DNA of 32,000 nt from contig NZ_LT963434.1 in the NCBI RefSeq assembly GCF_900199515.1, forward strand, positions 693,272-725,271. Reading direction: 5' to 3'. Positions 984-24,724 of the stretch are shown piece by piece; within the stretch, counting starts at the first letter, position 1, and each line of letters opens with the position of its first letter. Below the pieces are notes generated by a model, which saw only the letters and a list, made by a program, of their open reading frames with translations, made no database searches and was not told the DNA's origin. Source of the DNA: Massilicoli timonensis (GTDB lineage Bacteria; Bacillota_I; Bacilli_A; Erysipelotrichales; Erysipelotrichaceae). A program made the position numbers and the translations under genes.

Positions 984-1652
984 TCAATACCATGAATCTC
1001 TTTCATGTTGTAATTCTTCTTCCATATATGGATCATAATAGTCTACTCTTTTTGGAGCAATTGAATCTATAAATGTTTGATACTTTAAAACAATACTTTC
1101 ATCAATTACTCTCTCGTCATAAGAGCGATGACTAAAGTCTATTTTTCGAAGTGTATCCAATCGCTTTTTGGCTGCCGTTTTAGACACTTTAAACCAAGAC
1201 ATCAAATTTTCAACGGTAATTTGCTTTCCTCTATTTATTAACTCATTGATAATTTGTTCTGGCATTAACATCTGTGCCGCAAAAAAGTTCGTTTCAACTT
1301 CATAAATTCCATACATATTTTTATTATCTAAATCATGATTCAATTGAATATGACCAAATTCATGATTTAGACTAAAACGTTGTCTCTCTTTACTAGAAAT
1401 TTCTTCATTATAGAAAATTATTCCTTTTCCCTCTAAATTTTGATAAATTGCATCTTGAGAACCAAATGTTTTAATATCTATACCATACATTCCTGCTTTT
1501 AAGTAACTTCGACATGCAATATTAGTTTTCTCCTTAATAACCTTTTTTATTGAAAAGGGAAAAGTTTCTATAACAATTGAAGACACTAAAACATCATTTG
1601 CTTTTTCCAACGCTTTTTTAAAATCTGGTTTTAAGCAATCACTATAAATCAT
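984..1652 (-). CDS. ImmA/IrrE family metallo-endopeptidase (CapP-like)
   Basis: ORF track 984..1694. HEFGHIQLNH gives an HEXXH zinc-peptidase motif in a typical ImmA/IrrE context, directly downstream of an XRE gene. I moved the start to the ATG at 1652 (GAGGGGG Shine-Dalgarno 6 nt upstream), which gives an 11-nt overlap with the XRE stop. Confidence 0.85.
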   Translation of the reverse strand: MIYSDCLKPDFKKALEKANDVLVSSIVIETFPFSIKKVIKEKTNIACRSYLKAGMYGIDIKTFGSQDAIYQNLEGKGIIFYNEEISSKERQRFSLNHEFGHIQLNHDLDNKNMYGIYEVETNFFAAQMLMPEQIINELINRGKQITVENLMSWFKVSKTAAKKRLDTLRKIDFSHRSYDERVIDESIVLKYQTFIDSIAPKRVDYYDPYMEEELQHERDSWY

Positions 1653-2004
1653 CATCTTCCCCCTCATCATCATTAAATATATCGTCAAAAACAACTTTTA
1701 GCATTTTTTCTGCTTTTTGAATCTGTTGGTCATCAAGTTGTTCCAAACCACGTTGGATATATGAAAGTTTTTTATTCACTGTTTCAATTTCATCTTCTAC
1801 TCGATTTCCTAATAGATCATCAATAGAAATACTATATAATTTTGATATTTTTAATAAAATATCATCTCGAGGTACAACTCCTTTATTTTCCCACATACTA
1901 ACTGCACCTTTTGTAACGCCTAGTTGATCCGCAATTTCTTGCATAGTAAATTTGTTGTTACTACGTATTCGCTTAATTGCTTTACTAAACTCTTTATTCG
2001 CCAT
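1642..2004 (-). CDS. XRE-family helix-turn-helix transcriptional regulator (CapH/ImmR-like)
   Basis: ORF track 1642..2037. FTMQEIADQLGVTKGAVSMWENKGVVPRDDILLKISKLYSISIDDLLG is a classic HTH_XRE segment. The start is set to ATG 2004 (MANKEF...), preceded by AAGGAGG. The C-terminal tail is acidic. Confidence 0.85.
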   Translation of the reverse strand: MANKEFSKAIKRIRSNNKFTMQEIADQLGVTKGAVSMWENKGVVPRDDILLKISKLYSISIDDLLGNRVEDEIETVNKKLSYIQRGLEQLDDQQIQKAEKMLKVVFDDIFNDDEGEDDDL

Positions 2005-2041
2005 AATATCCTCCTTAGCACATTTTATTTTGTACAATTTA

Positions 2042-4410: not shown

Positions 4411-4977
4411 TTATTCTTTAGAACATAATGCCTGCCTTAAAAAAGCTTCATAGGCAACTTCTTGCTGCGTATATATTTCATCGGTGGAAATCCCCGGTGT
4501 AGTTACTGAAAATATAGTGCCTATGCCGATGGTATAAATCAGCATATTCAAGTGTAACCGTTTTGCCTGTTTTATGCTGATATTCAATTTTTCCGCAATA
4601 AATTCAGCCATATGAGGATTCGTTTCTGATTGATACAAGTCATTCAATGAAGAAATCCCCTCTCTTTGATGTAAAATGAATATTCTGAATAAGTGAGGTT
4701 CCTCTTGTGCTAAACGAATGTATGAATTACCTGTACTCCGAAACAGATCGTCTTTGTTAATGTGCGTTGCTACATATTCCCGTATAAAGCAATTGATCTG
4801 TTCAACCACATCTTGCCGCAGCCCATCCATATTTTTGCAATAACTGTAAATGGGCTGAACAGAACACCCTATTTTATCAGCAATATTTTTCACCATAACC
4901 TGCTCCATACCGCTTTCCCTTGCAATCTCAAAAGCAGCATTAACGACCATTTCTTTTGTAATTCTCTGTTTTGGCAT
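4411..4977 (-). CDS. TetR/AcrR family transcriptional regulator
   Basis: ORF track, 188 aa. The N-terminal HTH is ITKEMVVNAAFEIARESGMEQVMVKNIADKIGCSVQPIYSYCKNMDGL. A GGAGG RBS sits upstream. Confidence 0.85.
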   Translation of the reverse strand: MPKQRITKEMVVNAAFEIARESGMEQVMVKNIADKIGCSVQPIYSYCKNMDGLRQDVVEQINCFIREYVATHINKDDLFRSTGNSYIRLAQEEPHLFRIFILHQREGISSLNDLYQSETNPHMAEFIAEKLNISIKQAKRLHLNMLIYTIGIGTIFSVTTPGISTDEIYTQQEVAYEAFLRQALCSKE

Positions 4978-4990
4978 TTCCTACCTCCTA

Positions 4991-5031
4991 TATAATACAG
5001 TTATATAATCTATTTATATAACTGTATTATA
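4991..5031. promoter_or_regulatory. perfect 18-bp inverted repeat, candidate TetR operator
   Basis: TATAATACAGTTATATAA (4991..5008), spacer tctat, TTATATAACTGTATTATA (5014..5031). It starts 14 nt upstream of the TetR ATG and overlaps TATAAT-like hexamers. Confidence 0.6.
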
Positions 5032-5110
5032 CAATGAATTTGTTATTTGTCAATTACGAAACAAACAAAAAAGGCAAAAAAGGCAGAGATTTCTCCCTGC
5101 CGCTTTGGTC

Positions 5111-5400
5111 TCATGCGAAGATGTTTTCTTTCTCCACAATTTCCATTGCACGCCCAAATATTATTCATTCTTTTTGTCCATTCTAAGGCGTTTTCTTCCT
5201 TCAGGCATTCCCGTAAAATACCCTGCGCGTGTTTCATCTGCTCTGTAAGTGTTTCAAAGCGTTCCTGTGCCTACCTGTCAATGTTGGCAAGGTAAGTATT
5301 CAGTTTTCCTCTTGTAAGCAGATTTGTGCAGGTAAGTCTTTGATATTCCTTTAAGTGTGCAAACCCACATGAATACAGTGTTTTTACGACATGCAAATTA
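5111..5400 (-). pseudogene. decayed tnpV-like gene (3' two-thirds)
   Basis: The minus-strand reading ...GFAHLKEYQRLTCTNLLTRGKLNTYLANIDR*AQERFETLTEQMKHAQG...EENALEWTKRMNNI... parallels the intact TnpV at 13186..13563 (NLLTSCKLNSYLAGVNEQAEEMFSRL...WVQRMNNIRNRAREIV). There is an in-frame TAG at 5271..5273. A frameshift precedes the ancestral C-terminus AMEIVEKENIFA*, whose stop is at 5111..5113. Confidence 0.6.
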
Positions 5401-5633: not shown

Positions 5634-5669
5634 TTTTTACACGCATATTTTTTGTTAATCGTGTAAAAA
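5634..5669. promoter_or_regulatory. 10-bp inverted repeat upstream of abiEi, candidate AbiEi operator
   Basis: TTTTTACACG (5634..5643), 16-nt spacer, CGTGTAAAAA (5660..5669). It lies immediately upstream of TTGTAA (5673..5678), 17 nt, TATACT (5696..5701). Confidence 0.4.
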
Positions 5670-5691
5670 TAGTTGTAATTTTTATCGATTA

Positions 5692-6354
5692 ATGCTATAC
5701 TATAATCACGCAAATAATAAAAAATGCGTGCAGAAAGTCGGTGAACTATTGAATAAACACGAAATAGCAATTGATGTTTTTAATAAAGTCGGAAGCATTG
5801 CGAAGACAGCAGACTTTGTTGCCGTCGGGCTAAAAAACTATGATGTCGTTTCCCTTTGCAATCAAGGTTATATAGAGCGTATTCGCAATGGCTTTTACAA
5901 ACTGCCTAACGCTGAAGAGCCAAAAGAAGAAGCTCTAATTTCTAAACTCCTGCCGCAAGGAATTGTTTGTGTAGAGTCTGCTCTATTTTATTATGGGTAC
6001 AGTGACTTTGCTCCTCGTGAATGGACAGTTGCTGTCCCCCGTTCCTTTTCAAGAGCAATCAAAGCAATGCAGGAAGTCCCTATCAAAGCTTATTATGTTC
6101 AGAACGAGTTTTACCATTACGGTGCTACTGTAGGTGACTTTAATGGTGTTGAATTAAAAGTTTATGACCGAGAGCGAACAATCTGTGATTGCTTTAAGTA
6201 TCGTTCAAAGCTTGATAGTGAAATGTTCAACAAAGCAATCAACGCTTATGTAGCAGATCCGAAAAAGAATCTCGCAAATCTTTCTAAATACGCAAAGGAT
6301 ATGGGCGTTTATACAAAACTTATGAATGTAATGGAGGTGCTGCTCAATGGCTGA
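5692..6354 (+). CDS. abiEi: type IV toxin-antitoxin/abortive-infection antitoxin AbiEi family protein
   Basis: ORF track, 220 aa. It has an N-terminal winged-HTH-like segment (GSIAKTADFVAVGLKNYDVVSLCNQGYIERIRNGFYKL) and a conserved C-terminal region (VYDRERTICDCFKY). It overlaps the downstream AbiEii gene by 8 nt. The true start is probably downstream of 5692 (GTG 5728 or TTG 5749), because the best -10 box lies inside the first codons. Confidence 0.8.
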   Translation: MLYYNHANNKKCVQKVGELLNKHEIAIDVFNKVGSIAKTADFVAVGLKNYDVVSLCNQGYIERIRNGFYKLPNAEEPKEEALISKLLPQGIVCVESALFYYGYSDFAPREWTVAVPRSFSRAIKAMQEVPIKAYYVQNEFYHYGATVGDFNGVELKVYDRERTICDCFKYRSKLDSEMFNKAINAYVADPKKNLANLSKYAKDMGVYTKLMNVMEVLLNG

Positions 6355-7243
6355 TATTGCCGCATCCGTGCTTGCACGACTGAAAAATAAGGCTGCCGAA
6401 AGCGGAAGAAGCTATCAGCTTTGTTTGCAGCTCTTTTGTCAGGAAGAATTTTTGCGCCGTTTGGAAAAATCCAAATATGCGGAAAATCTCGTTCTTAAAG
6501 GTGGTCTGTTTATTTACTCTGTTACCGACTTTGACAGCAGAGTAACGGTAGATGTTGATTTTCTTCTTCGGAGAGTACCAAATACTCCAGAACAGCTAAA
6601 ACCTGTACTGGAAGAAATCATATCCACGCCCACCGGCAATGATTTTATTACCTTTGAAATTAAAGATATTGCACCCATTGCAGTTGCAAAGAAATATGCC
6701 GGTATCGGAGCTTCTATTGTGGCTCGTATTAAAAACACACGAACGCCGTTTAGTATAGACTTTGGTGTGGGTGATGTTATCGTGCCGAAACAGGAAAAGA
6801 GAAAAATCCCGACACAGCTTGACGACTTCGCTGCGCCGGTAGTAAATACATATTCTCTTGAAACGACGATTGCTGAGAAAATAGACGCAATCCTCAGTCT
6901 GATGGAATTTTCCAGCCGAATGAAGGATTATTATGACATTTACTATCTTGCTAATAAATTTGATTTTGACGGCAAGGTGCTCACCGAAGCACTGAAGAAA
7001 ACTTTTGAAAATCGTGGACACGCCTTTACGATTGAACAGTTTGAACAGGTTATGAGCTTTGCAGACGATTCTGCTATGCAGAAAAAGTGGAAAGCATTCT
7101 GTCGGAAGATTGATACTCAAACTGATGATTTCAATACGGTGTTAAAAATAATTGAGGCGTTTTTGACAAAACCGTTTACAGTGGCGGTCAAAGGTGAAAA
7201 ATTTACTGAAAAATGGTCTGCCGCTAATGGCGAATGGATGTAA
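6347..7243 (+). CDS. abiEii: nucleotidyltransferase AbiEii/AbiGii family toxin
   Basis: ORF track, 298 aa. The N-terminus MADIAASVLARLKNKAAESGRSYQLCLQLFCQEEFLRRL...LVLKGG is characteristic of AbiEii. It is paired with AbiEi. Confidence 0.9.
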   Translation: MADIAASVLARLKNKAAESGRSYQLCLQLFCQEEFLRRLEKSKYAENLVLKGGLFIYSVTDFDSRVTVDVDFLLRRVPNTPEQLKPVLEEIISTPTGNDFITFEIKDIAPIAVAKKYAGIGASIVARIKNTRTPFSIDFGVGDVIVPKQEKRKIPTQLDDFAAPVVNTYSLETTIAEKIDAILSLMEFSSRMKDYYDIYYLANKFDFDGKVLTEALKKTFENRGHAFTIEQFEQVMSFADDSAMQKKWKAFCRKIDTQTDDFNTVLKIIEAFLTKPFTVAVKGEKFTEKWSAANGEWM

Positions 7244-7259
7244 TTAGGAGGACGAGAAA

Positions 7260-7766
7260 ATGGAGTGTAAAGACATTTTAAATTTAATAGCTATAATTGT
7301 AATTCCTATAGTTGCCGTCTTGATTGGACAACATTTGCAAAATAGAGCAGAAATAAGAAAAGATAAAATGCACATCTTCAAAGTGCTTATGACTTCTCGA
7401 ATATATGGCTGGACACAGGAAAGTGTGCATTGCCTTAATATTATTGATATTGTATTTTCAGATGATAAAAAAGTCCGTAATGCCTGGAAAGATTTATATG
7501 ACAAATATTGCGTTAAGAACCCAGATGAAGTGCAACTCAAAAAAATTCAGAACGCTCAATATAAATTATTGGAAACAATAGCAAAATCTTTGGGATATAA
7601 GGATAAGGTTACTTGGGAAACCATTCAAAATCCATATATTCCAGATGGAATGATACGGCAACAGCAGGAACAAGCAGCATCTCGACAAGCATACAATGAT
7701 ATTTTGCTAAATATGCAACATATGATACCCAAAAATAATAAGGTGGATGAAAACAATGAGCACTAA
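7260..7766 (+). CDS. hypothetical protein with an N-terminal membrane anchor
   Basis: ORF track, 168 aa. A strong AGGAGGA RBS sits 7 nt upstream. One hydrophobic helix (ILNLIAIIVIPIVAVLIG) is followed by a charged soluble part. The stop overlaps the mod start. It resembles small DUF-type proteins by memory only; this is unverified. Confidence 0.6.
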   Translation: MECKDILNLIAIIVIPIVAVLIGQHLQNRAEIRKDKMHIFKVLMTSRIYGWTQESVHCLNIIDIVFSDDKKVRNAWKDLYDKYCVKNPDEVQLKKIQNAQYKLLETIAKSLGYKDKVTWETIQNPYIPDGMIRQQQEQAASRQAYNDILLNMQHMIPKNNKVDENNEH

Positions 7767-9462
7767 TATATCAAAACAAAAGCGTGAGGACTTATTGAAT
7801 AAAATCAAAGAAATCCGAACCTTTATTTCTGCTGCTCAACAGGATGAGAACACGGGCAATCTTCTTTCCTATCTTTCCGATTTAGAGAAAGATGTAAACG
7901 GCAAGAAATATGGACTTGTATTCGAAGAACACCGTGAGGAAATCGACGATGTGCTTGATACCCATACACCGGTACTGACCGAAGAGAAAGACCTGTTCAT
8001 TGACAACGGCGGACAAATGAATTTTCTCATTGAAGGGGATAACCTTGCTTCTCTTAAATTACTCGAAAAGACACATAAGGGAAAAATAAAAATGATTTAT
8101 ATAGATCCGCCGTATAATACAGCAAATAAAGATTTTGCGTATGATGATACAAGAGTGGATGCTACTGATACATTTAGACATAGCAAATGGCTATCTTTTA
8201 TGAGAGTAAGACTCAAAATTGCTCGAAATTTGTTAAGTGATGATGGTATTCTATTTATTTCAATAGATGATAACGAGCAGGCTGACTTAAAATTGTTGTG
8301 TGACGAAATATTCAAAGAAGAAAACTTTTTCTCTCAGGTTATTGTTCAGTCAAACAAGAGGGGGCAAACCTATAAGCAAATTGCAAAAACACACGAATAT
8401 TTACTTATTTACACACGCTCTCCAGAAGCAGAATTTAACGAGATTGATAAAACTGATGAGGATAATGACCTTAATCTTCTTGACGGCATCAGTGCATACA
8501 ATGTAAGAGAGTTAAGAAATCGTAATCCTAAATTTGGTAAACACAACCGTCCTAATTTGTTTTACCCGATATATGTAAATCCTTTGACTATTGACAAAGA
8601 TGGATTTTGCCCTGTTTCATTAACACAAACTGACGAATATTACATAGAAGTTTTCCCTTATAACTCAACAGGAGTAGAAAGTTGTTGGCGTTGGGGAACA
8701 AAATTATTTAGCGAAAATGTAAATGCTGATACACAAATGAGTAATGTTGTTGCTCGAGCCAAAAGAGATGGCGCATTTAACATATACGAAAAATATCGTA
8801 AAACAACTTATAAGGCAAAATCAATATGGGTTGAAACAGATGTCATTACTGAAAAAGGTACTGTAGAACTTGGTGAACTCGGTCTTGCAGAGCGTTTTCC
8901 GTTTCCAAAACCATTGTTTTTACTAAAAAAATGCTTACAGATTGGAACAAATCCTAACGATATAATTCTCGACTTCTTCGCCGGCAGTGGAACAACGGGA
9001 CACGCAGTGATGAAACTAAATGCAGAAGATGGCGGTAATCGTAAATTTATCCTTTGCACCAACAACGAAAACAACATCTGCCGTGAGGTCACATACGAGC
9101 GTATCAAGCGCGTTATTGACAAAGAGGGTTACTCCGCTTCGTTGAAATATTACAAGGTAGATTATATCCCCATAAGTGAGCGTATGTATTATGAATATGC
9201 GGACGAGTTGTTAAAGCATATCCGTGAACTTGTCGAACTTGAAAACGGCGTTAACTTCACAAACAACGCAGAAATAGCTATCGTTCTTACAGAAGAAGAA
9301 CTTGATAACTTTATTTCTCAACTTGAAAACAACACCAAATGTCGGAAACTATATTTAGGGCACGATATTCTGATAGACGCACAGCAAGCACAAGTTTTGA
9401 GGGATAGGAAGATTACGGCAAATATCATTCCTGACTACTATTACAAAGAATTGGAGGGCTAA
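7756..9462 (+). CDS. mod: type III restriction-modification N6-adenine DNA methyltransferase (Mod)
   Basis: ORF track 7747..9462. Motif IV is IYIDPPYNT and the later motif I is DFFAGSGTTGHAV (beta-class order). It is followed 2 nt later by a Res-type helicase-nuclease. The start is set to ATG 7756 (AAGGTGG 9 nt upstream). Confidence 0.9.
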   Translation: MSTNISKQKREDLLNKIKEIRTFISAAQQDENTGNLLSYLSDLEKDVNGKKYGLVFEEHREEIDDVLDTHTPVLTEEKDLFIDNGGQMNFLIEGDNLASLKLLEKTHKGKIKMIYIDPPYNTANKDFAYDDTRVDATDTFRHSKWLSFMRVRLKIARNLLSDDGILFISIDDNEQADLKLLCDEIFKEENFFSQVIVQSNKRGQTYKQIAKTHEYLLIYTRSPEAEFNEIDKTDEDNDLNLLDGISAYNVRELRNRNPKFGKHNRPNLFYPIYVNPLTIDKDGFCPVSLTQTDEYYIEVFPYNSTGVESCWRWGTKLFSENVNADTQMSNVVARAKRDGAFNIYEKYRKTTYKAKSIWVETDVITEKGTVELGELGLAERFPFPKPLFLLKKCLQIGTNPNDIILDFFAGSGTTGHAVMKLNAEDGGNRKFILCTNNENNICREVTYERIKRVIDKEGYSASLKYYKVDYIPISERMYYEYADELLKHIRELVELENGVNFTNNAEIAIVLTEEELDNFISQLENNTKCRKLYLGHDILIDAQQAQVLRDRKITANIIPDYYYKELEG

Positions 9463-9464
9463 AA

Positions 9465-11660
9465 ATGGATATTATCCTTGCGAACTTTCAGATAAAAGCT
9501 ATCGCCGATTTAACTGAAGCGATGGAACAGCCGAATAGGGATATTATCCTCAAAAGCTGTACGGGAAGCGGAAAAACCATTATACTCACTCATTTTATGG
9601 ATGAATATTTAAAAAGCAATCATAAAACGGTATTTATTTGGCTTACTCCCGGTAAAGGCAACCTTGAGGAACAAAGTAAAGAAAAAATGGATCGGTATAT
9701 CCACGGAAGTCAGACAAAATTAATTTCCGACATTATGACTGCCGGATTTGAAGAAAACGATGCTTGCTTTATTAACTGGGAAAAGCTGACTAAGAAAGGG
9801 AACAATGCTTTGAAAGACAGCGAGCGCACAAACTTTATCGAACACATACGCAACGCTCTTGATAGCGGGCTGTGCTTTAAAATTATTGTTGATGAGTCCC
9901 ATCAAAACGACACAATCAAAGCGGATGATATTATTGAGTTGTTTCATTCAGATAAAATAATCCGATGTTCAGCTACGCCTAAAAATTATAAGAATGCCAT
10001 TTTAATCGATATTCCCGAAGAGGATGTTATTGCAGAGGGCTTAATTAAAAAGTTGCTTATTATTAATGAGAATTTTGAGCAACACATAAATGTGGATGAT
10101 CAGATTACATATTTGATTGATAAAGCGATAGATAAGCAGAGAGAACTACATTCTGAATACCTGAATCAAAAATCAGAAATCAACCCTCTTATTATCGTAC
10201 AAATTCCAAACAAGTCTGACGCTTTACTTGACAGAGTTGAAGAATATTTTGAAAGTAAAGGGATTACTTACGAAAATAATTTACTTGCTGTATGGCTTTC
10301 GGACAAAAAACAAAACCTTGAAGATATTGAGGAACCAAATGCAGAACCTATTGCAGTTATTATCAAACAGGCTGTGGCTACAGGTTGGGATTGTCCTCGT
10401 GCACAGATTCTTGTAAAGCTCCGTGATAATATGAGCGAGGTGTTTGAAATTCAGACTATCGGACGAATTCGCCGTATGCCCGAAGCAAAACACTATGAGA
10501 GTGATTTGCTTGATAGCTGCTATCTATATACTTTAGATGAGAAGTTCACAGAAAGCGTAAAGCTGAGCTTAGGACAAGGAGCGCTCGACGCATACAAGAT
10601 TTTTTTAAAACCGGAGTATCGTTCATTTACACTCATCAGCGAATACAAAACCGATGTCCCATATCCTCGTGATGCAAAACTATCACTTAAAGTAATACAC
10701 AAGTATTTTGAAAAGAAATATCATATCACAGGTGACACTGCTAAAAACAAAGCGCTGTTGGAAGCACACGGTTATTCCTTTTCTGAAGATATTATTGATT
10801 TTACAAAGTCGGGGGCTGTAAGTACCTTATCAAAAGAAAATATAACTGGATTGAACGATATATCGATACACGAGCCGTTGAACACACATAAACACGGCAA
10901 AGAATATCATCATTGTGTCGCAGAAATAGGATATAAAGTAAATTTGGATTACAATAGTACGAATACTATTATGCGTAAACTGTTCCTTAACGGATTGCGT
11001 TGTGAGTCTAAAATTTTAAAAATCGAAACAAGAGAGCTATATGCTTTCATAATCAATAATAAGCGTTTATTGATTGAGGATGTTCGTGATGCTATGGCGG
11101 ATGAATCCCTACAACTGGCTTTGACAATTCCGAAAACAACAGAAAAACCCATCGGTTTTCCGTTAGAAATGATTTTTACCTACGATGGGACTTCGAAATC
11201 GCAGACAGAATTTTCTAAAAATGTATATAAAGGATATCTTTCCTCTGCCGAAAAGCGTTCCTTACCTGAGAAGCTTTTTGAACGCTATTGTGAAAACAGC
11301 AAAAACATTCAGTGGTTTTACAAAAACGGAGATAAGGGGATTGAATATTTTTCTATCGTTTATACGGATAACTTTGGAAAGCAAAAATCATTTTATCCTG
11401 ATTATATTATTGGAACAACTGACAATAAGGTATGGATAATCGAAACAAAAGGTGGATTTACTAAGTCTGGCGATAGTGAAGACATCGATAAGTATACTGC
11501 TAAAAAATTTGGAGTCTTAAAGGCTTATATCGACAAATATAAACTGCTTGGCGGTATTGTTCGACAAGATAAACAAAGCAGTGAACTTTGCATTTGCACA
11601 GAAACATATTCTGACGATATTAAAAGTGACAGTTGGAAACTGCTATCTGATGTATTATAA
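9465..11660 (+). CDS. res: type III restriction enzyme Res subunit (SF2 helicase plus PD-(D/E)XK nuclease)
   Basis: ORF track, 731 aa. Walker A is SCTGSGKT. DEAH-like motif is IVDESH. SAT motif is CSATP. Motif VI is QTIGRIRR. The C-terminal nuclease-like motif is FYPDYIIG...VWIIETKGG. Confidence 0.85.
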   Translation: MDIILANFQIKAIADLTEAMEQPNRDIILKSCTGSGKTIILTHFMDEYLKSNHKTVFIWLTPGKGNLEEQSKEKMDRYIHGSQTKLISDIMTAGFEENDACFINWEKLTKKGNNALKDSERTNFIEHIRNALDSGLCFKIIVDESHQNDTIKADDIIELFHSDKIIRCSATPKNYKNAILIDIPEEDVIAEGLIKKLLIINENFEQHINVDDQITYLIDKAIDKQRELHSEYLNQKSEINPLIIVQIPNKSDALLDRVEEYFESKGITYENNLLAVWLSDKKQNLEDIEEPNAEPIAVIIKQAVATGWDCPRAQILVKLRDNMSEVFEIQTIGRIRRMPEAKHYESDLLDSCYLYTLDEKFTESVKLSLGQGALDAYKIFLKPEYRSFTLISEYKTDVPYPRDAKLSLKVIHKYFEKKYHITGDTAKNKALLEAHGYSFSEDIIDFTKSGAVSTLSKENITGLNDISIHEPLNTHKHGKEYHHCVAEIGYKVNLDYNSTNTIMRKLFLNGLRCESKILKIETRELYAFIINNKRLLIEDVRDAMADESLQLALTIPKTTEKPIGFPLEMIFTYDGTSKSQTEFSKNVYKGYLSSAEKRSLPEKLFERYCENSKNIQWFYKNGDKGIEYFSIVYTDNFGKQKSFYPDYIIGTTDNKVWIIETKGGFTKSGDSEDIDKYTAKKFGVLKAYIDKYKLLGGIVRQDKQSSELCICTETYSDDIKSDSWKLLSDVL

Positions 11661-11675
11661 GAGAGGAAAATAAAA

Positions 11676-12605
11676 ATGAGTAGTCAAGAACCAAAGAAAA
11701 ATGTTCCAATTTACTTTTATTATCTTACAATATCAAAACAAAAGGATAGTAACGATTCTTCCGCTTACGATATACAAAAAATATTGGATTCATTTTCTAG
11801 ATTACTATCATATGTTACAGCGAAGAATCTGACCGATAGAAAAAAGGACATCAAAACTTCAGAAAAAGTTGTATGGCTTGATTCATATGAAGATTTAAAA
11901 AACGGAAATTACAATATTATTTTTAAGTCCGCAAAATATAATCACGTTAGAAATGAGATTGACACAGAAACAATGACTGAATTGGGCACACGTAAGCGCA
12001 AGCAGGATGGCGATGAAGAAAAGACCCATTTATGCATTCGTTATAACGCCGGAGAATACCGATTGCTTACTGTTCACGAAAGCAACCATTATGGTGTGAC
12101 ATTAAATTGTATAGTCGACTATTTGAATACTCAATTCGTAAGTTATAATGAAGATACGGATGATAAATATCATTATTCGATATCGTATGAAATTATGCCA
12201 GGAGAAGATTTTCTTTCATCAATCAAAAAAGCAAAAACTATGTCAATATTAAAGCTGGTAGTGAGCAAAGAAGATATCAAAGATGATTTTATGATGTTTG
12301 CTGGAAGAAATGATATTGCTGATGAAGTTGAAATATGTCTTAAACGCCCAAAAGGAGCTAAAAAGTTCCCTGAAAATTTGATAAAGGCGTATTTTGATAA
12401 TTCTCAGAATAAGGTAACAGGAAAAATCAAGAAAGTTACTATTAAAGGAACAAATTCATTCGGTCAATTTGAAGTTGATACTGAGCTTATGAAAATGAAA
12501 CATTATTTATCAGTTTCAGCTGAAATGGTAACCAACGAAGTAAACAGTTCGGATTTCTTTGAAAAAGCACAAGAATTCATAGAAGAAACGAGGGATAAAC
12601 AATGA
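11676..12605 (+). CDS. hypothetical soluble protein, 309 aa, no recognisable catalytic motif
   Basis: ORF track. A GAGAGGAA RBS sits about 8 nt upstream, and the gene starts 15 nt after the res stop. The protein is rich in charged residues. I found no Walker A, HEXXH, DxD or HTH pattern. Its stop overlaps the next start (ATGA). Confidence 0.7.
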   Translation: MSSQEPKKNVPIYFYYLTISKQKDSNDSSAYDIQKILDSFSRLLSYVTAKNLTDRKKDIKTSEKVVWLDSYEDLKNGNYNIIFKSAKYNHVRNEIDTETMTELGTRKRKQDGDEEKTHLCIRYNAGEYRLLTVHESNHYGVTLNCIVDYLNTQFVSYNEDTDDKYHYSISYEIMPGEDFLSSIKKAKTMSILKLVVSKEDIKDDFMMFAGRNDIADEVEICLKRPKGAKKFPENLIKAYFDNSQNKVTGKIKKVTIKGTNSFGQFEVDTELMKMKHYLSVSAEMVTNEVNSSDFFEKAQEFIEETRDKQ

Positions 12606-13141
12606 AAAGTATAATTTTTATTCCTCTAAAGGATTACTTTTTTTCAAGGAAAAATGTATTAATTAAATTTCTCATTCCAATGCTGATTGCTTTAGCTGCA
12701 TTATTATTATCTATATTTTTTAATATAGGTAATTCAGAAAAAGTTATATCAACCTTTTCTGGATTTATAGATACGCAGATAAATATTGTAGCAATTTTAA
12801 TTTCTTTTTCTATAGCGATTATTACAATTTTAGTGTCTGCTGACAACAAGAATATACAATGCTTAAAAGAAACCGAATCAAACAAAACACAATATAAGCC
12901 TGTTAACGGTAAGCAATTATCTCTATTTCAAATTTTGCTTTCTAATATAACATACAATGTTATTGTAGAAATAATATACCTAGTTGGGCTTATAGCTATT
13001 TCTCTTATAAAAACTATTTTGCCCATTGTATCATTGAAATTCATTGTATCTATTTGTCTCTTTATTATTTTACACATATTGTTTGTGTTACTTGAATCGG
13101 TCTCTCAAATGTATCTGACTTTTTGGGCAAATAAAAAATAG
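12602..13141 (+). CDS. hypothetical integral membrane protein, 179 aa, about four TM helices
   Basis: ORF track. A GAGGGA RBS is present and an ATGA overlap links it to the upstream gene. Hydrophobic stretches: LIKFLIPMLIALAALLLSIFF, INIVAILISFSIAIITILVS, NVIVEIIYLVGLIAISLI, FIVSICLFIILHILFVLL. GC is very low (20% in my count of the line at 12601). Confidence 0.7.
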   Translation: MKSIIFIPLKDYFFSRKNVLIKFLIPMLIALAALLLSIFFNIGNSEKVISTFSGFIDTQINIVAILISFSIAIITILVSADNKNIQCLKETESNKTQYKPVNGKQLSLFQILLSNITYNVIVEIIYLVGLIAISLIKTILPIVSLKFIVSICLFIILHILFVLLESVSQMYLTFWANKK

Positions 13142-13143: not shown

Positions 13144-13187
13144 ATTGACGGCAGGGACAGTTTTGATCTCCTGCCGTCAATTTGTTT
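13144..13187. terminator. bidirectional stem-loop terminator between convergent genes
   Basis: ATTGACGGCAGG (13144..13155), 14-nt loop, CCTGCCGTCAAT (13170..13181), then TTGTTTA. It lies between the stop at 13141 (+) and the tnpV stop at 13186 (-). Confidence 0.6.
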
Positions 13188-13563
13188 ATACTGTATAAAT
13201 CAATTCTTTATCTACAATCTCCCTCGCTCTGTTACGAATGTTATTCATCCTCTGCACCCAAAGCATTTGATTTTCAGCTTTGAGCTTTTCTGTTACATTT
13301 TCTTTTTCCGCCAGTTGTTTTACCAGCCGGGAAAACATTTCTTCTGCCTGTTCATTAACCCCGGCAAGGTAACTGTTCAGCTTGCAGGAAGTCAGCAGAT
13401 TCACATAAAGAGTCCTTTTATGCTCCTTAATATACCTCAAGTGTCTTTGTCCCCACACGCCCACTGGCTTCTGTTCTTCTTCGGACAGTGAGAGGCAAGG
13501 GAGATAATAATCTCCCTGCCGTACATAAGTGCCGCCCATTTCTTCAAAAATCGTCTTTGCCAT
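13186..13563 (-). CDS. tnpV: transposon-encoded TnpV-like protein
   Basis: ORF track, 125 aa. MAKTIFEEMGGTYVRQGDYYLPCLSL...WGQRHLRYIKEHKRTLYVNLLTSCKLNSYL matches the TnpV family of Tn4451-type mobilizable transposons as I recall it. Confidence 0.75.
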   Translation of the reverse strand: MAKTIFEEMGGTYVRQGDYYLPCLSLSEEEQKPVGVWGQRHLRYIKEHKRTLYVNLLTSCKLNSYLAGVNEQAEEMFSRLVKQLAEKENVTEKLKAENQMLWVQRMNNIRNRAREIVDKELIYTV

Positions 13564-13572: not shown

Positions 13573-14826
13573 CTACCTTTCATAATTTTTATTTTTTGAA
13601 CGCTTTTCACGCTCTTGTGACTGTGTTTTCGGTGCAGGAATCGGCTCATAAAGAATACTTTTTTCCTGTTTCTTGAACCTCTCAAGGATACCGTCAATAA
13701 ATTCTTTGACCGCTTTAGGCGCCGCTTTTAACGCTTCCAGATACGGTCTGCATTTTTCCGTCAGCTCAGATAAAGCTGTTTTTAGCCGTGAAACTTCAGA
13801 TTGTAATGACCATATCTGCCTTGTTAGATACTGATTTTCTTCCTGTAATTTCTTTGCTTCGGACACCGCTGAGTAGCTTTGTTTTGCAAGGGTGGTTAGC
13901 TTTTCGTAGTCGTCTGCCGACACGGTATATTTGCCTGTAAACGACTTTTTGCCTGAGCTGTCAATCTCATGAAAGGTCATAAAAGCATTGTGATTTTCTT
14001 CATACCGTACCTGTTCTCCAGCGATTTTTTCTTGAAGACTTGATAGTTTCTCTTTGTCTTTCTTGATTTTAAATTCAAGTGAAGCTAAGTTTTCAGCAGT
14101 ACTTCCACGCTCTCCACGGCTGAATCCGTTAAAGCCAGCTTCCTGCATATGCTCATAAAACTTGTCCTGTAATATGCTATAGGAAGCGTGATAGACTGGC
14201 TTTCCTTTGCTGTTCAGAATGGGATTTCCGTTTTCATCAAGCGCCTTTTCGGACTTCCATTTCTTTGAATGGCTCACTTGATGAATGACCTCTTTTACCT
14301 TTCCTACCAGTTCAGGATCTTTACATCGTTTCGTCCAGCGCACATCCTTGTCCACCACCGGCAGCGCCATAATATGCAGATGATAGTGATAAATCGGTCT
14401 GCCGTACTTCTCAGTCATTGCTGTATTCAGTTCATCAGCGTGCATTACTGCAGATACAATATTGTCTTTACCGTAGAGCTTTTCTGCAAAATGGAAGGCT
14501 TCTTCATAGAACCGACAGGCATATTCATAGCCGCCGTTCTGCTCGAAATAGTCGGTATTTACATCCATAATCATCTCGTCAAAGACTGTCGCATCAGGTT
14601 TTAACCCTTTCAAGGATACCTCTCCTGCGGCAATCATTTGGTCAAGATGTTCGTTATAGGTCAGCTCTCCGCAGCTCTTAAAACTTACATTCATAGGTGT
14701 GCGTGAGAGGTCAACATTCATATTTTCATAGCTGTCATTTTTACGCTCGATGTGTCGCTCAAACTTGCCAACCGTTGCTCTTGTACGGGTTTCGATACGG
14801 GCGACACTGAAGTTTTGTTTCGCCAT
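13573..14826 (-). CDS. MobV-family (Pre/Mob, TnpZ-like) relaxase
   Basis: ORF track, 417 aa. The N-terminus is FSVARIETRTRATVGKFERHIERK. The HxDE...HxH motif is MHADE...YHYHLHIMALPV. The C-terminal half is coiled-coil rich. Confidence 0.85.
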   Translation of the reverse strand: MAKQNFSVARIETRTRATVGKFERHIERKNDSYENMNVDLSRTPMNVSFKSCGELTYNEHLDQMIAAGEVSLKGLKPDATVFDEMIMDVNTDYFEQNGGYEYACRFYEEAFHFAEKLYGKDNIVSAVMHADELNTAMTEKYGRPIYHYHLHIMALPVVDKDVRWTKRCKDPELVGKVKEVIHQVSHSKKWKSEKALDENGNPILNSKGKPVYHASYSILQDKFYEHMQEAGFNGFSRGERGSTAENLASLEFKIKKDKEKLSSLQEKIAGEQVRYEENHNAFMTFHEIDSSGKKSFTGKYTVSADDYEKLTTLAKQSYSAVSEAKKLQEENQYLTRQIWSLQSEVSRLKTALSELTEKCRPYLEALKAAPKAVKEFIDGILERFKKQEKSILYEPIPAPKTQSQEREKRSKNKNYER

Positions 14827-15073: not shown

Positions 15074-16036
15074 TCACTCTGTTTTTTCGGGAAGCTGCCA
15101 GTACCACTGACTGCCCTCTTTAACCGATTGGACATTTAGTGCTTTCTTTGCTTCATCCAGCACACGCTTTGAAATTCCCATCGCCTGTGCTTTCTTTACC
15201 AATTCTTTCTGCGGGTATTTGCCCTTTGAAAGATATTCGAGTATTAAGTTTTCAGCCTGCTCTGATTTCTTTTCTTTCGGAATGCCACTTAACAGATCGT
15301 CAACCGAGATATCGTAATGACCGAGCCAACTAAATCCGTTTTCTTTGTCCAGTTCAAAGGCAATCGCTTCACCTTCGGGTGCAAGGGAAGACTTGTCCTG
15401 CACCATCACTCGCACCTGCGGATTGTCTTTGATTCTCCCGACAATCAGAACACTTCTTGCCGAAGCTTGAAAGTCAATGGAACCAAGTCCACGGTAGGAA
15501 GATTTGTTTCCGCTTCCTTTGTTCATATGACCGACGAGCAGAACTGCACAGTCATATTTTTCTGCGATTCTTCCCAGCTGTGCCATCACATTGCGGACTT
15601 CATTAGCGTTGTTCATATTGATATTCGCACCGACATACGCCTGAATCGGATCAAGGATTACCACCCTTGCACCGACTTCTATAATTGCTTTTTCAATGCG
15701 TTCATCCAGCATACTGAGTGCGACTTCCGATTCGTCTATAACTTTAATTTGCGTACAGTCTGCCTCAGCCGCTTCCAACCTCGGCTTGATGGTATCTTCC
15801 AGTCCGTCCTCTGCAGTTTGATAGATGATCTTTACAGGCTCACGCTCAGTATCATCATAGGGCGGCGCTTCTCCTTTAGAGAGAAGCGCCGCCAGTCTTA
15901 ACGCCAAAGTTGTTTTGCCCTCACCGGGATCGCCCTGAATAATTGTGATTTTTCCGTATGGGATATATGGATACCAAAGCCAGTTCACTTGTTTGCTCTG
16001 GACTTCATCCATACTGATAATTTTAAGTTCTGCCAT
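15074..16036 (-). CDS. AAA-family (RepA/DnaB-like, AAA_25-type) ATPase of mobile elements
   Basis: ORF track, 320 aa. Walker A is GDPGEGKTT. Walker B-like is VVILDPI. There is a C-terminal HTH-like tail. The N-terminus W-L-W-x-P-Y-I-P-x-G-K is typical of this family. Confidence 0.75.
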   Translation of the reverse strand: MAELKIISMDEVQSKQVNWLWYPYIPYGKITIIQGDPGEGKTTLALRLAALLSKGEAPPYDDTEREPVKIIYQTAEDGLEDTIKPRLEAAEADCTQIKVIDESEVALSMLDERIEKAIIEVGARVVILDPIQAYVGANINMNNANEVRNVMAQLGRIAEKYDCAVLLVGHMNKGSGNKSSYRGLGSIDFQASARSVLIVGRIKDNPQVRVMVQDKSSLAPEGEAIAFELDKENGFSWLGHYDISVDDLLSGIPKEKKSEQAENLILEYLSKGKYPQKELVKKAQAMGISKRVLDEAKKALNVQSVKEGSQWYWQLPEKTE

Positions 16037-16167: not shown

Positions 16168-16500
16168 TCATTCATTTGCATTCTCTCCTTTCAGTCCGTG
16201 CATTGTAAAGGCAATAAGGTCAATAGTGTCGAGCAGTTCCGTTTGGACATTCTCACCTGCGGCAATACGCTGTAATTCCTCAAGGATAAATGCCATCTGC
16301 GTTTTCAGCGCCTTATAAACTCTCGGATTTGGCTGAACCACTACCTCACGCCCCATACACTTGCGGTAACAGTATTCCTGTTTCGGCAGTCCCGAAAGAG
16401 CAACTGCTCTGTTGAGTTCTTCCTGTTCTTCGGGTGATACTCGAAATCCTACGGTAATACTGCGGAAACGGTTGTGGCGGTCTACATTTTTAGCTGACAT
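16168..16500 (-). CDS. MobC-like relaxosome accessory protein
   Basis: ORF track, 110 aa. RFRSITVGFRVSPEEQEELNRAVALSG is a ribbon-helix-helix / MobC-type pattern. It sits in the mobilisation module. Confidence 0.55.
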   Translation of the reverse strand: MSAKNVDRHNRFRSITVGFRVSPEEQEELNRAVALSGLPKQEYCYRKCMGREVVVQPNPRVYKALKTQMAFILEELQRIAAGENVQTELLDTIDLIAFTMHGLKGENANE

Positions 16501-16504: not shown

Positions 16505-16672
16505 TCACACTCCTTTATTCATAAAATCAAGTTTAACTGCCATTTCCTTTTGTTTTGACGGGAATAGATGAGCATAGCGGTAAGTGATTTCTATGCTTTC
16601 GTGTCCCACTCGGTCAGCAATAGCAACGGCGGAAAATCCCATATCAATTAAAAGACTGATATGGCTGTGCCC
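16505..16672 (-). pseudogene. 3'-terminal stub of a tyrosine recombinase (integrase) gene
   Basis: The minus strand reads G-HSHISLLIDMGFSAVAIADRVGHESIEITYRYAHLFPSKQKEMAVKLDFMNKGV* (stop 16505..16507). This is the box II region with the conserved His residues and catalytic Tyr. The frame is closed by the TAA at 16673..16675 exactly where the conserved R of R-H-S-H is expected. Confidence 0.7.
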
Positions 16673-16963: not shown

Positions 16964-17794
16964 GTGAAGTCATTGAACCCACAAATCATCGCCGTTGCCA
17001 ACCAGAAGGGCGGCGTCGGCAAAACGACTACCTGCGCCAACTTAGGCATCGGGCTGGCGCAGGCCGGAAAGAAGGTGCTGCTGGTGGATGCTGACCCGCA
17101 GGCCAGCCTCACCATCAGCCTGGGCAACCCGCAGCCGGACAAGCTGCCCTTTACCCTGTCCGATGCGATGGGCCGTATTCTCATGGACGACCCGATCAAA
17201 CCCGGCGAGGGCATCCTGCACCACCCGGAGGGCGTGGACCTGATGCCTGCCGACATCCAGCTCTCCGGCATGGAGGTATCCCTGGTGAATGCCATGAGCC
17301 GCGAGACGATTCTGCGGCAGTATCTGGACACGGTGAAGGGACAGTATTCCCATATCCTCATCGACTGCCAACCCTCCCTGGGAATGCTCACGGTCAACGC
17401 GCTGGCCGCCGCCAACAGGATCATAGTCCCCGTCCAAGCGGAGTATCTGCCCGCCAAGGGCCTGGAACAGCTGCTGTCCACCATCAACAAGGTCAAGCGG
17501 CAGTTAAATCCCAAGCTCCAGATCGACGGTATTCTGCTGACGATGGTGGACAACCGCACCAACTTTGCCAAAGAGATCGCCGCCCTGCTGCGGGAGACCT
17601 ACGGCAGCAAAATCAAGGTGTTCGGCACCGAGATTCCCCACTCGGTTCGAGCCAAGGAGATCAGCGCCGAGGGCAAGAGTATCTTCGCACATGACCCCGG
17701 CGGCAAGGTGGCGGAAGCCTATAAAAATCTGACGCGGGAGGTGATAAAACTTGAAAAGCAGCGCGAAAAAAGTAGAGCTGGCCTCAGTCGATGA
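16964..17794 (+). CDS. parA: ParA/Soj-family partition ATPase
   Basis: ORF track, 276 aa. The deviant Walker A is [14 protein letters not shown]. The more likely start is TTG 16973 (GAGGTG 6 nt upstream). Confidence 0.9.
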
Positions 17795-18686
17795 CCTGTT
17801 TTCCACCGAGGAAAGCCGCGCCGACGCCCAGCGTGAAAAAGTCATGGAAATTCCCTTGTCGGAGCTGCACCCATTCAAGGATCACCCCTTTAAGGTCAAG
17901 GACGATGAGGCCATGATGGAGACCGCCGACAGCATCCGGCAGTACGGCGTACTGGTCCCGGCCATTGCCCGCCCGGACCCTAATGGCGGCTATGAGCTGG
18001 TTGCCGGGCACCGGCGGCACCGAGCTAGCGAGCTGGCGGGTAAAGAAACCATGCCGGTGATTGTCCGCGACCTGGACGATGACCAGGCCACCATCATCAT
18101 GGTTGACAGCAATTTGCAGCGGGAAAGCCTGCTCCCCAGTGAAAGGGCTTTTGCCTACAAGATGAAGCTGGAAGCTATGAAGCGACAAGCTGGCAGACCG
18201 TCCAAAGAAAATTGTTCCCAAGTTGGGAACGATTTTGGGAAGAAGTCGAGCGAGGTATTGGCTGAACAGGTCGGCCAGAGTAAAAACCAGATTTTTCGTT
18301 ATATCCGCCTCACCGAGCTAATTCCCGAACTGCTGGACATGGTGGACGAGAAGAAAATCGCCTTCAATCCGGCCTACGAGCTGTCCTTCCTCAAAAAAGA
18401 GGAACAGGTGGATTTGCTGGACGCGATGGACAGCGAACAGGCCACGCCGTCGCTCTCCCAGGCCCAGCGGCTGAAAAAGTACAGCCAGGAGGGCCACCTG
18501 ACCCTCGACATGATGCGGGTCATCATGGGCGAAGAAAAGAAAAGCGACCTGGACAAGATCACCTTCACCAGCGACACCCTGCGCAAATATTTTCCCCGGA
18601 GCTATACGCCCCAGCGGATGCAGGAGACCATCATCAAGCTGCTGGAACAGTGGCAGCGCAAGCGCCAGCAACAGCATGAACGCTGA
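17751..18686 (+). CDS. parB: ParB/Spo0J-like nuclease-domain partition protein
   Basis: ORF track, 311 aa. The ParB N-terminal box is [27 protein letters not shown]. The start is TTG, preceded by GGAGGTG. It overlaps the parA end by 44 nt. Confidence 0.9.
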
Positions 18687-18700
18687 GAGAGGAGTTGCCT

Positions 18701-18979
18701 ATGAGGGATATTTCAGCCCGCGAGCTGAAAGGACATAACATTTTGGCTGTGGAGCGATTTCAGGACAGCACCCGCTGGATGGTGGAGTTTGCGGTCCGCA
18801 AGCCCCGCACCCCTTACGGCAGCCCCGGCGACGAGGTGCGCCTGTTTCTCACCGAGGACGGCTACCGGCAGGCCCTGGACGCCCAGCGCAGCCAGCAGAT
18901 CAAAATTAAGCGCCATGCCCACGTTGTCGAGGGGCACATCATCGACTTCAAGCCGAAGAAAAAGCGCCGCCACCCGTAA
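18701..18979 (+). CDS. hypothetical small basic protein
   Basis: ORF track 18695..18979. GAGAGGAG RBS, then ATG 18701. The codon usage is GC-rich and matches the neighbours. No motif recognised. Confidence 0.5.
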   Translation: MRDISARELKGHNILAVERFQDSTRWMVEFAVRKPRTPYGSPGDEVRLFLTEDGYRQALDAQRSQQIKIKRHAHVVEGHIIDFKPKKKRRHP

Positions 18980-19009
18980 ACCCACCGCTTGCCAAGAAAG
19001 GACTGAACT

Positions 19010-19195
19010 ATGTGTACCGTTAGAGACATTGAAGAAGCCATCCGCGAACACTGCCAATCCCAGCATGACATGGAAAGCACCGAGATCGACCAGGTAATGC
19101 AGCGCCTGCCCTTCGGCACCGCGCAGGACGTTTTTACCCGGCCCCCTGTGCCGAAGCCGCCGTATTCCTGGCGCAGCCGGAACGACCGCACCTGA
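19010..19195 (+). CDS. hypothetical protein (61 aa)
   Basis: ORF track. It is co-directional and followed directly by a terminator. The RBS is weak. Confidence 0.4.
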   Translation: MCTVRDIEEAIREHCQSQHDMESTEIDQVMQRLPFGTAQDVFTRPPVPKPPYSWRSRNDRT

Positions 19196-19198
19196 CCG

Positions 19199-19229
19199 CC
19201 GCAGTCTTTTTGAAGATTGCGGCTTTTTT
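19199..19229 (+). terminator. rho-independent terminator ending the parA-parB operon
   Basis: CCGCAGTCTT (19199..19208), loop tttg, AAGATTGCGG (19213..19222; one G-U pair), then C and T6 (19224..19229). Confidence 0.6.
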
Positions 19230-19259
19230 CATGCCATGAATGCCGAAAGGAGTGATGAA

Positions 19260-20114: not shown

Positions 20115-20153
20115 TGGCCGCCTTTTCTGCTGCACCGCCCAAGGAGGCACGAT

Positions 20154-20921: not shown

Positions 20922-21009
20922 CAGGCCGGTATCTGCTGCGGCGGCTGGTGGTCCCGCCTTAGTATCAAGCGCCACCCCTGCAAAATCCGTGGAAAGGAGG
21001 CGATGACCT

Positions 21010-23336: not shown

Positions 23337-23446
23337 TGTTCCGCTTTAGAAGGGAGTGATCGTATCTATCCGCCACAACCGCCCCGCTGGGGCCATCGGC
23401 GTACAAAGCGGACGATCTCTATCAAAAATAATGAAAAAGGAGGAAG

Positions 23447-24712: not shown

Positions 24713-24724
24713 GGAGGCTTCCGC

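Follow-up and report, generated by a model that had tools for sequence, protein, structure and literature searches.

A gap-free array of seven open reading frames (ORFs), all of which lie on the + strand, occupies positions 5692-13141 of the 32,000-nucleotide (nt) stretch of Massilicoli timonensis DNA (contig NZ_LT963434.1) analysed here; this whole stretch is termed the window, and coordinates given without a locus name are positions in it. The array probably represents a mosaic operon of separable defence modules carried on a mobile element, rather than one seven-gene machine. Judged from the sequence, the first module would be AbiEi/AbiEii, a type IV toxin-antitoxin/abortive-infection pair with an autoregulated-looking promoter, and the second a predicted small single-pass membrane protein of the DUF6680 family. 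The third is an old four-gene core, which consists of the Mod and Res proteins of a type III-like restriction-modification (R-M) system and a RexAB-type pair, ORF6/ORF7. The carrier is an integrative mobilizable element (IME) of gut Firmicutes. The genes of the array and the signals at its two ends are as follows.

5692-6354, + strand: abiEi, antitoxin/regulator, with its start probably at TTG 5749
6347-7243, + strand: abiEii, nucleotidyltransferase toxin, assigned by Pfam and PADLOC
7260-7766, + strand: DUF6680 protein, its single membrane helix N-terminal; encoded by an optional accessory gene that immediately precedes mod
7756-9462 (first ATG 7747), + strand: mod, N6-adenine methyltransferase (Mod) of type III, whose central target recognition domain (TRD) is swappable
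9465-11660, + strand: res, superfamily 2 (SF2) helicase-type ATPase with a C-terminal PD..ExK nuclease, short, divergent and type III-like
11676-12605, + strand: ORF6, cytoplasmic protein of 309 amino acids (aa) with a predicted RexA fold
12602-13141, + strand: ORF7, predicted four-helix membrane protein of 179 aa in the RexB position, partner of ORF6
5634-5736, + strand: promoter-like site with two palindromes, the likely AbiEi operator region
13144-13187: hairpin terminator that separates the array from the convergent tnpV

The comparison with about 150 related loci revealed that only Mod-Res-ORF6-ORF7 is constant across them. In a species-representative genome set of 35 loci, which have ORF6 homologues of at least 42% identity, the full arrangement with AbiE and DUF6680 5' of the core was present in eight loci, plus one that was ended by its contig; AbiE without DUF6680 was found in two, plus the decayed locus L031, DUF6680 without AbiE in three, and neither in about nine. 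Mod-Res was located upstream of ORF6-ORF7 wherever the upstream DNA sufficed, and the exceptions were L024, L049 and the decayed L031 and L048. The four-gene core was kept down to 42% ORF6 identity, and to 37% on one short contig; the distant ORF6 relatives looked up by exact protein came from contigs of 1-2 kb only. In a second set, which was anchored on Res and comprised 80 metagenome loci with 65-98% Res identity, ORF6 stood directly 3' of Res in 67 of the 73 informative loci. Among the 43 loci that were informative for the region 5' of Mod, 19 possessed neither AbiE nor DUF6680, ten both, eight AbiE only and six DUF6680 only. The gap between res and ORF6 is 11-27 nt across loci and contains only a Shine-Dalgarno (SD) sequence, and the ATGA overlap of ORF6 and ORF7 is found in most of them. 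An earlier note on this DNA had offered functional coupling as one of two explanations; a coupling of all seven genes is not supported, given the occurrence of AbiE and DUF6680 in all four presence/absence combinations and the other genes that fill their slot. Independent assortment of the sub-blocks, which the note had named as a refuting outcome, applies to the outer blocks and not to Mod-Res-ORF6-ORF7, which stay together.

The six exceptions among the Res-anchored loci include two with a disrupted Res (L131 and L142) and four in a sister clade, whose Res displays 65-66% identity and is directly followed by other genes. In L131 (5001-8272), Res is cut short by a Tn916-type integrase gene, and in L031 of the genome set (9672-10798) a deletion joins Mod residue 120 to ORF6 residue 43, with Res gone. 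As for the sister clade, a 232-aa ORF is located 2 nt after res in L145 (4839-7864) and L150 (5572-6270), and in L145 a HamB-type helicase (Hachiman-like, PADLOC 4e-52) comes next. In L147 (2668-4662) and L148 (7154-9148), an uncharacterised 664-aa ORF overlaps the end of res.

Where AbiE is absent, the slot directly 5' of mod is often filled by another defence-type gene on the same strand, at spacings from an overlap to about 70 nt (L029 5320-6138; L030 5004-5927; L034 1185-2378; L037 3796-6045; L040 4155-5456; L044 5286-6116). The families encountered in this slot are ThsB TIR (6e-74), Fic/SoFic/PDC-S04, AAA_14-DUF4143/PDC-S01 (1e-146), GIY-YIG/DUF4357/PDC-S14, Schlafen AlbA_2 and AAA-ATPase_like/PDDEXK_9, together with a 444-aa ORF without an assigned family.

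A neighbour-joining tree of 85 distinct ORF6 homologues grouped all 75 R-M-linked sequences into one clade, with nine stand-alone copies from phages and prophages outside it. L024, whose ORF6/ORF7 (89% identity) have no R-M genes upstream, was nested inside the R-M-linked clade. The tree therefore indicates that the R-M operon captured a phage-type pair once, that the two were then inherited together for a long time, and that they came apart again at least once. The pair also stands alone in eight IMG/VR contigs, and its occurrence alone in phages and in L024 suggests that it is autonomous.

Neither ORF6 nor ORF7 had a match in Pfam, NCBIfam or PADLOC-DB (PADLOC E <= 0.01), and both match phage families without an assigned function, namely phrog_4672 (1.3e-19) for ORF6 and phrog_4613 (1.5e-14) for ORF7. 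The search of phage genomes with tblastn found the two adjacent to each other in Roseburia phage Jekyll and in Anaerostipes phages AC844P1-3; in Jekyll, the pair follows directly after holin and endolysin, and the ORF6 homologue is annotated as 'RexA-like protein'. An AlphaFold2 model of ORF6, which was built from 88 diverse homologues, achieved a predicted local distance difference test (pLDDT) score of 92.7 and a predicted template modelling (pTM) score of 0.84. When this model was compared with the PDB by Foldseek, lambda RexA (8twq) was the only significant match (8twq_B, E 1.6e-8; 8twq_A, 8e-7), with a probability of 1.00 and a full-length alignment, and the next PDB match had an E-value of 7e-3. 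A profile search of PDB sequences with ORF6 gave no link to RexA, so that the relationship emerges from fold comparison and not from sequence methods. The AlphaFold2 model of ORF7 (pLDDT 86.8) contains long helices at residues 21-39, 45-79, 108-139 and 142-176, in agreement with hydropathy, and the best BFVD match of ORF7 (E 0.22) and the best match of ORF6 share one phage metagenome record. Where a locus extends far enough downstream, ORF6 is nearly always followed by ORF7, and a small four-helix membrane partner thus lies directly 3' of the putative sensor gene, as in RexAB.

A prophage pair of Pseudomonas putida has been named RexAB-type and reported as a phage-defence system on account of a RexA-like fold and a four-helix partner without RexB sequence similarity (PMC12894663). 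According to their structure models, ORF6/ORF7 would be classified on the same kind of evidence as this pair, PP_5643/5644, and appear to fit the looser RexAB-type class, not the RexA/RexB sequence families. In common with lambda RexA/RexB and the RexAB-type pairs (P. putida PP_5643/5644 and mycobacteriophage Sbash gp30/31), a protein of about 300 aa with a predicted RexA fold precedes a four-helix membrane protein, the start of the membrane gene overlaps the stop of ORF6, and relatives exist as stand-alone pairs in temperate phages. Unlike lambda RexA/RexB, ORF6/ORF7 lack significant sequence similarity to these proteins and a Pfam match, ORF7 is longer than RexB (179 versus 144 aa), and the pair is situated behind a restriction operon on a mobilizable element instead of beside a phage repressor. 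Of the three ORFs that had previously been listed as uncharacterised, two are counted as resolved: ORF6/ORF7 constitute a RexAB-type pair, and the third ORF is a DUF6680 family member. Kiwa, which combines the four-helix membrane protein KwaA with KwaB, was also considered for ORF6/ORF7. PADLOC-DB 2.0.0 contains Kiwa models, and Kiwa has its membrane gene first, the reverse of the order in the array; this candidate was rejected because PADLOC-DB and Pfam gave no family for ORF6/ORF7 and because of the reversed gene order.

Mod matched PADLOC MTase_III (6.5e-114) as well as the solved type III Mods Mbo45V (7.6e-62), Helicobacter Mod (4.3e-53) and EcoP15I Mod (1.7e-36), and its motif DPPYN precedes FAGSGTT, which is the order of beta-class N6-adenine methyltransferases. 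The TRD at about residues 151-410 (DNA about 8200-8960) shares 22-38% identity between loci, compared with 65-92% for its flanks, and the allele of the window recurs at 88% in L045 and L054 on a far more divergent backbone, where Res is only 81% identical. By comparison of these sequences, the TRD exchange, which takes place between elements that are nearly identical elsewhere, is read as a reshuffling of specificity, as is typical of active type III systems. Res (731 aa) carries Pfam ResIII at its N-terminus (2.6e-18), and the motifs GSGKT, DESH, SAT, QTIGRIRR, PD and ETK, which define an SF2 helicase-like ATPase with a C-terminal PD-(D/E)xK nuclease, are invariant or nearly so among 36 distinct homologues of 67-100% identity. 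The match of Res to PADLOC REase_III is weak (1.8e-14) and confined to the helicase core (residues 139-366), and Res, which is short and divergent, is accordingly termed type III-like. As in the type III systems EcoP15I, Mbo45V and Helicobacter Mod, mod comes before res, an order shared by all relatives; Mod has DPPY before FxGxG with a variable TRD in the middle, and in Res the helicase motifs I, II (DExH), III and VI are accompanied by the C-terminal PD..ExK. The differences from these systems reside in the short Res, which has no phmmer match to EcoP15I Res, and in the two extra genes that the operon always includes.

The AbiE module was identified by the PADLOC AbiEi match of the abiEi product (7.2e-60), the profile alignment of which begins at residue 21-22, and by the match of the abiEii product to Pfam PF08843 (DUF1814; 2.7e-48, cut-off 22.5 bits) and PADLOC AbiEii (1.7e-94). 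Two features of AbiE membership are thus present, a PF08843 toxin domain and an AbiEi encoded directly upstream with an 8-nt gene overlap. The ATG at 5692, from which abiEi had been read before, is doubtful as the start: the -10 hexamer of the promoter-like site falls on that ATG, and in the divergent relative L036 the equivalent ATG is missing and the hexamer is TATAAT. A conserved GGTGA is followed by a start codon, which is TTG at 5749 in the window and GTG in L036. Taken together with the AbiEi profile match from residue 21-22, these observations make it more likely from the sequence that abiEi starts at 5749 and encodes 201 aa. The palindrome at 5634-5670 is preserved in L036 by compensatory changes, and by analogy with the AbiE layout the palindromes at the abiEi promoter are likely a candidate AbiEi operator. 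Like the AbiEi/AbiEii systems of Streptococcus agalactiae and Lactococcus, the module comprises overlapping antitoxin and toxin genes, a PF08843 toxin and palindromes around the promoter; unlike AbiE alone, it is one of several interchangeable genes 5' of the R-M core. Between the window and L005, L008 and L015-L036, AbiEi is 57-70% identical where the adjacent AbiEii is 82-99% identical, which would mean either that AbiEi was exchanged separately or that it is evolving much faster than the AbiEii toxin.

The third ORF belongs to Pfam PF20385 (DUF6680; 1.4e-47), and its single membrane helix corresponds to a hydropathy segment at residues 1-28. DUF6680 was mentioned in no paper within a limited literature search, no copies were detected in the plasmid, phage and IMG/VR collections by tblastn and pattern scans, and the family was encountered only directly 5' of this Mod lineage. 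In L018 (5616-5957) and L019 (1862-2233), both of which carry AbiE, an unrelated ORF of 113-123 aa, with no membrane helix and no family match, replaces DUF6680 between abiEii and mod. The ORF of L018 shares the terminal NNEH* of DUF6680, as the point of junction falls immediately 5' of the conserved start of mod.

The layout of the array agrees with the earlier note in most particulars. All seven ORFs were recovered at their coordinates on the + strand, and the recomputed junctions were identical: abiEi and abiEii overlap by 8 nt (-8), abiEii is separated from DUF6680 by 16 nt (+16), DUF6680 and mod overlap by 11 nt from ATG 7756 (-11) or by 20 nt from the first ATG at 7747, mod is followed by res after 2 nt (+2) and res by ORF6 after 15 nt (+15), and ORF6 and ORF7 overlap by 4 nt (-4). 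A purine-rich SD sequence is present at the correct distance in six of the seven genes. The mod start at 7756 is preferred over 7747, in line with the earlier choice, because the SD sequence AAGGTGG lies 9 nt upstream of it and because gene callers also give the 11-nt overlap of DUF6680 and mod on related contigs. A consensus scan found no + strand terminator-like site within 5692-13141, as had been maintained, and the terminator at 13144-13187 proved robust (-24.1 kcal/mol, z = -5.9), with none of 200 shuffles folding as well. The promoter region placed upstream of the array was likewise borne out by a scan, which found a promoter-like TTGTAA-17-TATACT at 5673-5701 (-35 TTGTAA at 5673, -10 TATACT at 5696-5701) between the palindromes at 5634-5670 and 5713-5736. 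Since the junctions contain only SD sequences, it is plausible that the seven genes are co-transcribed as one unit. The promoter-like matches in the region numbered 41, compared with 32.7 +/- 5.6 in shuffles, and since they are not in clear excess, internal promoters within the array are a real possibility. Tight packing alone is not beyond chance either, because junctions this short are normal in operons.

The array is the cargo at the extreme left end of the mobilizable element, because the shared DNA runs from 5395-5400 to 16669 across many hosts. In blastn comparisons of the window with L006, L007, L036 and L063-L069, similarity begins at 5395-5400 every time, which leaves about 295 nt between the left end of the element and the start of the array, and the right limit of similarity to L006, L007 and L009 is 16669. 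The features of the element and its left border are the following.

5157-5357, - strand: tnpV pseudogene with an in-frame stop and no N-terminus (tblastn, 43% to intact TnpV)
5395-5400: left end of the shared element, beyond which the flank differs between hosts
13186-13563, - strand: tnpV (Pfam TnpV, 1e-48)
13573-14826, - strand: Mob_Pre relaxase (Pfam, 4e-41)
15074-16036, - strand: AAA_25 ATPase (Pfam)
16168-16500, - strand: NikA-like protein (Pfam)
16508-16669, - strand: tyrosine integrase remnant, the last 54 codons (tblastn, L006 integrase residues 305-358, 100%)

The order tnpV/Mob_Pre/AAA_25/NikA-like is repeated in L005-L014 and L063-L070, and in L006, L007, L009 and L011 a tyrosine integrase is found beside a guaA-like GMP synthase gene. 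A relaxase, an accessory protein, an integrase, defined ends and varied insertion contexts, by which an IME is recognised, are therefore all present. The suggestion that the array is a single mobile cargo cassette was substantiated by the recurrence of the seven-gene layout with tnpV and Mob_Pre beside different left flanks. The exact ORF6 protein was contained in 187 index blocks, and all ten places among the matches listed carried the full array and the backbone, with five kinds of left flank. A 92%-identical DUF6680 was contained in 1533 index blocks, and all eight places among the matches listed had the seven-gene layout, beside unrelated host genes. Near-identical arrays in different flanks thus indicate that the cassette moves as a unit on recent time scales. 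A megablast search of the array against plasmids gave no match.

On the mosaic reading, the modules would act as successive layers of defence. The first line would be Mod and Res, which would cut incoming DNA that is unmethylated. ORF6/ORF7 would form an autonomous second line, in which, by analogy with lambda Rex, ORF6 would sense an infection-associated DNA or protein-DNA state and open ORF7, and the opened ORF7 would depolarise the membrane, by which the infection would be aborted; AbiE would constitute a third, independent abortive layer. The tight packing would reflect an R-M lineage that gathered defence genes at both of its ends and was moved as one unit.

Several observations weigh against parts of this mosaic reading. 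The global TM-score of ORF6 to 8twq is just 0.33-0.36, the hhalign probability of ORF6 versus lambda RexA is 0.4% with a 10-sequence profile and 1.4% with an 88-sequence profile, and Pfam RexA (PF15969) is not matched by ORF6 even at E <= 10. Lambda RexA is a two-domain protein whose crystal form has been described as closed (PMC11077077), with which the low TM-score is in keeping; a low value is to be expected if the two domains are hinged differently. ORF7 shows no significant similarity to RexB, either by Pfam PF15968 or by hhalign (probability 0.9%), and its fold search against BFVD returned nothing significant and no RexB. EcoP15I Res is not matched by Res (phmmer, E <= 1). With respect to transcription, AbiE-type promoters are normally self-repressed, for which reason promoters inside abiEii or DUF6680 may drive the R-M genes separately; promoter-like matches are present in these two genes, and they are no commoner than in shuffled sequence. 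Finally, no intact Mod-Res of the clade with at least 67% identity was found without ORF6/ORF7, which is also expected if the two halves of the core are functionally dependent.

Such dependency would be realised if ORF6/ORF7 served the restriction enzyme as a directly wired fail-safe, in the manner of PrrC and EcoprrI, an explanation that is possible and yet rather unlikely. ORF6 would then monitor Mod/Res or the DNA ends that Res makes, and the ORF7 channel would open once an anti-restriction protein of a phage blocks restriction, or once restriction is overwhelmed, with the outcome that the cell is killed or arrested. The invariable company of intact Mod-Res just described speaks for it, as do the persistence of the four genes together from 100% to 37-42% ORF6 identity with only an SD sequence between res and ORF6, and the single clade of R-M-linked ORF6, which points to long co-inheritance. 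It is further favoured by the non-specific DNA binding of RexA-type proteins (PMC11077077), and by the established idea of coupling between restriction and suicide modules, for which PrrC is the worked example and precedent (Makarova et al. 2012, PMC3506569). The array resembles PrrC-EcoprrI in that a restriction operon contains a module of the abortive-infection type and is inherited together with it. It differs in that the effector would be a Rex-like sensor plus a membrane protein rather than an anticodon nuclease, in that the R-M system is of type III rather than type Ic, and in that ORF6/ORF7 also exist alone. Against the fail-safe explanation, the pair without R-M in phages and in L024 probably works alone, the replacement of ORF6/ORF7 by a Hachiman-like pair or a 664-aa ORF behind the sister-clade Res fits a general stacking habit better, and co-inheritance on a mobile element accounts for the linkage without any interaction.

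It is improbable that ORF6/ORF7 are not defence genes at all and instead serve the element or the R-M system, for example as a DNA-binding regulator, although roles in element maintenance, restriction alleviation or establishment after transfer are conceivable. Lambda RexA needs no RexB to bias the bistable lysis-lysogeny switch, its fold is also that of the recombination protein RdgC, and ORF6/ORF7 of the R-M-linked clade adjoin tnpV in many loci that reach far enough downstream, all of which would suit such a role. It is opposed by the conserved membrane partner, which in the manner of exclusion systems starts before ORF6 has ended, by the moron-like positions of the phage copies after lysis genes, and by defence genes as neighbours in nearly every examined locus. 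That all seven proteins form one integrated system, with AbiE and DUF6680 as required partners, has been largely refuted by the comparative data and is very improbable. The gap-free junctions, the one visible promoter region and one terminator, and the very common occurrence of the seven-gene form in gut metagenomes would accord with it, but AbiE and/or DUF6680 are missing from 33 of the 43 informative loci and are replaced elsewhere by unrelated defence genes, and the gap between the identities of AbiEi (57-70%) and AbiEii (82-99%) denotes separate histories. The mosaic of separable modules thus remains the preferred reading.

Earlier work has described AbiE, type III R-M and RexAB-type pairs, as well as the carriage of defence genes by mobile elements and the concept of immunity/suicide coupling. 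The limited literature search retrieved no account in which a RexAB-type pair is joined to a type III-like R-M system as a conserved fusion, in which this fusion is widespread in gut Firmicutes, or in which the R-M operon has variable slots for defence genes at each end. Similar to defence hotspots and islands (P2/P4 hotspots and the cargo of integrative and conjugative elements and IMEs), variable defence genes occupy fixed backbone positions and are exchanged at gene boundaries; unlike in those hotspots, the slots lie on either side of a conserved R-M operon, share its orientation and are spaced from it as genes within an operon are, and are not placed between the core genes of an element. 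The cooperation of co-located restriction and suicide modules, which has been argued since PrrC, becomes testable in a compact four-gene case, where natural controls are provided by the stand-alone pair (phages and L024), the Hachiman-like replacement (sister clade) and the Res-deleted L031. Meanwhile, the RexAB-type family would be extended to abundant gut Firmicutes, in which, to our knowledge, few defence systems have been tested. One mobilizable element would spread a three-layer defence package to many gut hosts while the specificity of Mod is reshuffled, and how this cargo is assembled matters for phage therapy and for the range of hosts that gut mobile elements can reach. If the fail-safe explanation were true, the core would be a Rex-type equivalent of PrrC-EcoprrI that has been spread through the human gut microbiome by a mobilizable element; even with independent layers, the locus clearly illustrates how defence genes come to be stacked around a restriction operon, at the boundaries between genes.

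Regarding the surroundings of the array, L009 is 99.8% identical to the window up to 16669 and then continues into an intact integrase. In the window, the integrase remnant directly abuts high-GC DNA of a conjugative element at about 16.7 kb, so that either the element of the window has been immobilised by rearrangement or the 16.7-kb boundary is an assembly join. The window has a GC content of about 30-45% over its first 16.6 kb or so, and of 57-64% in the remainder. The conjugative element module (16964-30173, + strand, about 60% GC) encodes ParA, ParB, HTH_36/DUF6017, Bro-N/ANT, DUF3801, a coupling protein, a VirB4-like ATPase and a CHAP/NlpC-P60 hydrolase, and contains an MT-A70 methylase at 24725-25261. 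Neither tRNA genes nor Rfam families were found in the window.

A direct repeat or duplication bounding the array was considered and rejected, as the sole flanking similarity is that of the tnpV pseudogene to tnpV, at 43% amino-acid identity; the two are remnants of two different elements. At the place of the pseudogene, a second tnpV is intact in L008 and short in L068, with type II R-M or C5-methylase cargo beyond it, and elements of the tnpV kind seem to pile up side by side. To the left of the pseudogene lie TetR and flavodoxin genes and a helix-turn-helix/ImmA-like pair. A perfect 18-nt inverted repeat (TATAATACAGTTATATAA / TTATATAACTGTATTATA) at 4991-5031 overlaps a promoter at 5026-5053 (- strand), which matches the consensus TTGACA-16-TATAAT in 12 of 12 positions and is located just upstream of a TetR-family gene (4411-4977, - strand); the two are probably the putative operator and promoter of this gene. 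At 984-2037 (- strand), in the lowest-GC part of the window, the genes for an HTH_3 repressor-like protein and a Peptidase_M78 (ImmA/IrrE-type) protein overlap, a regulatory pair typical of mobile elements and prophages.

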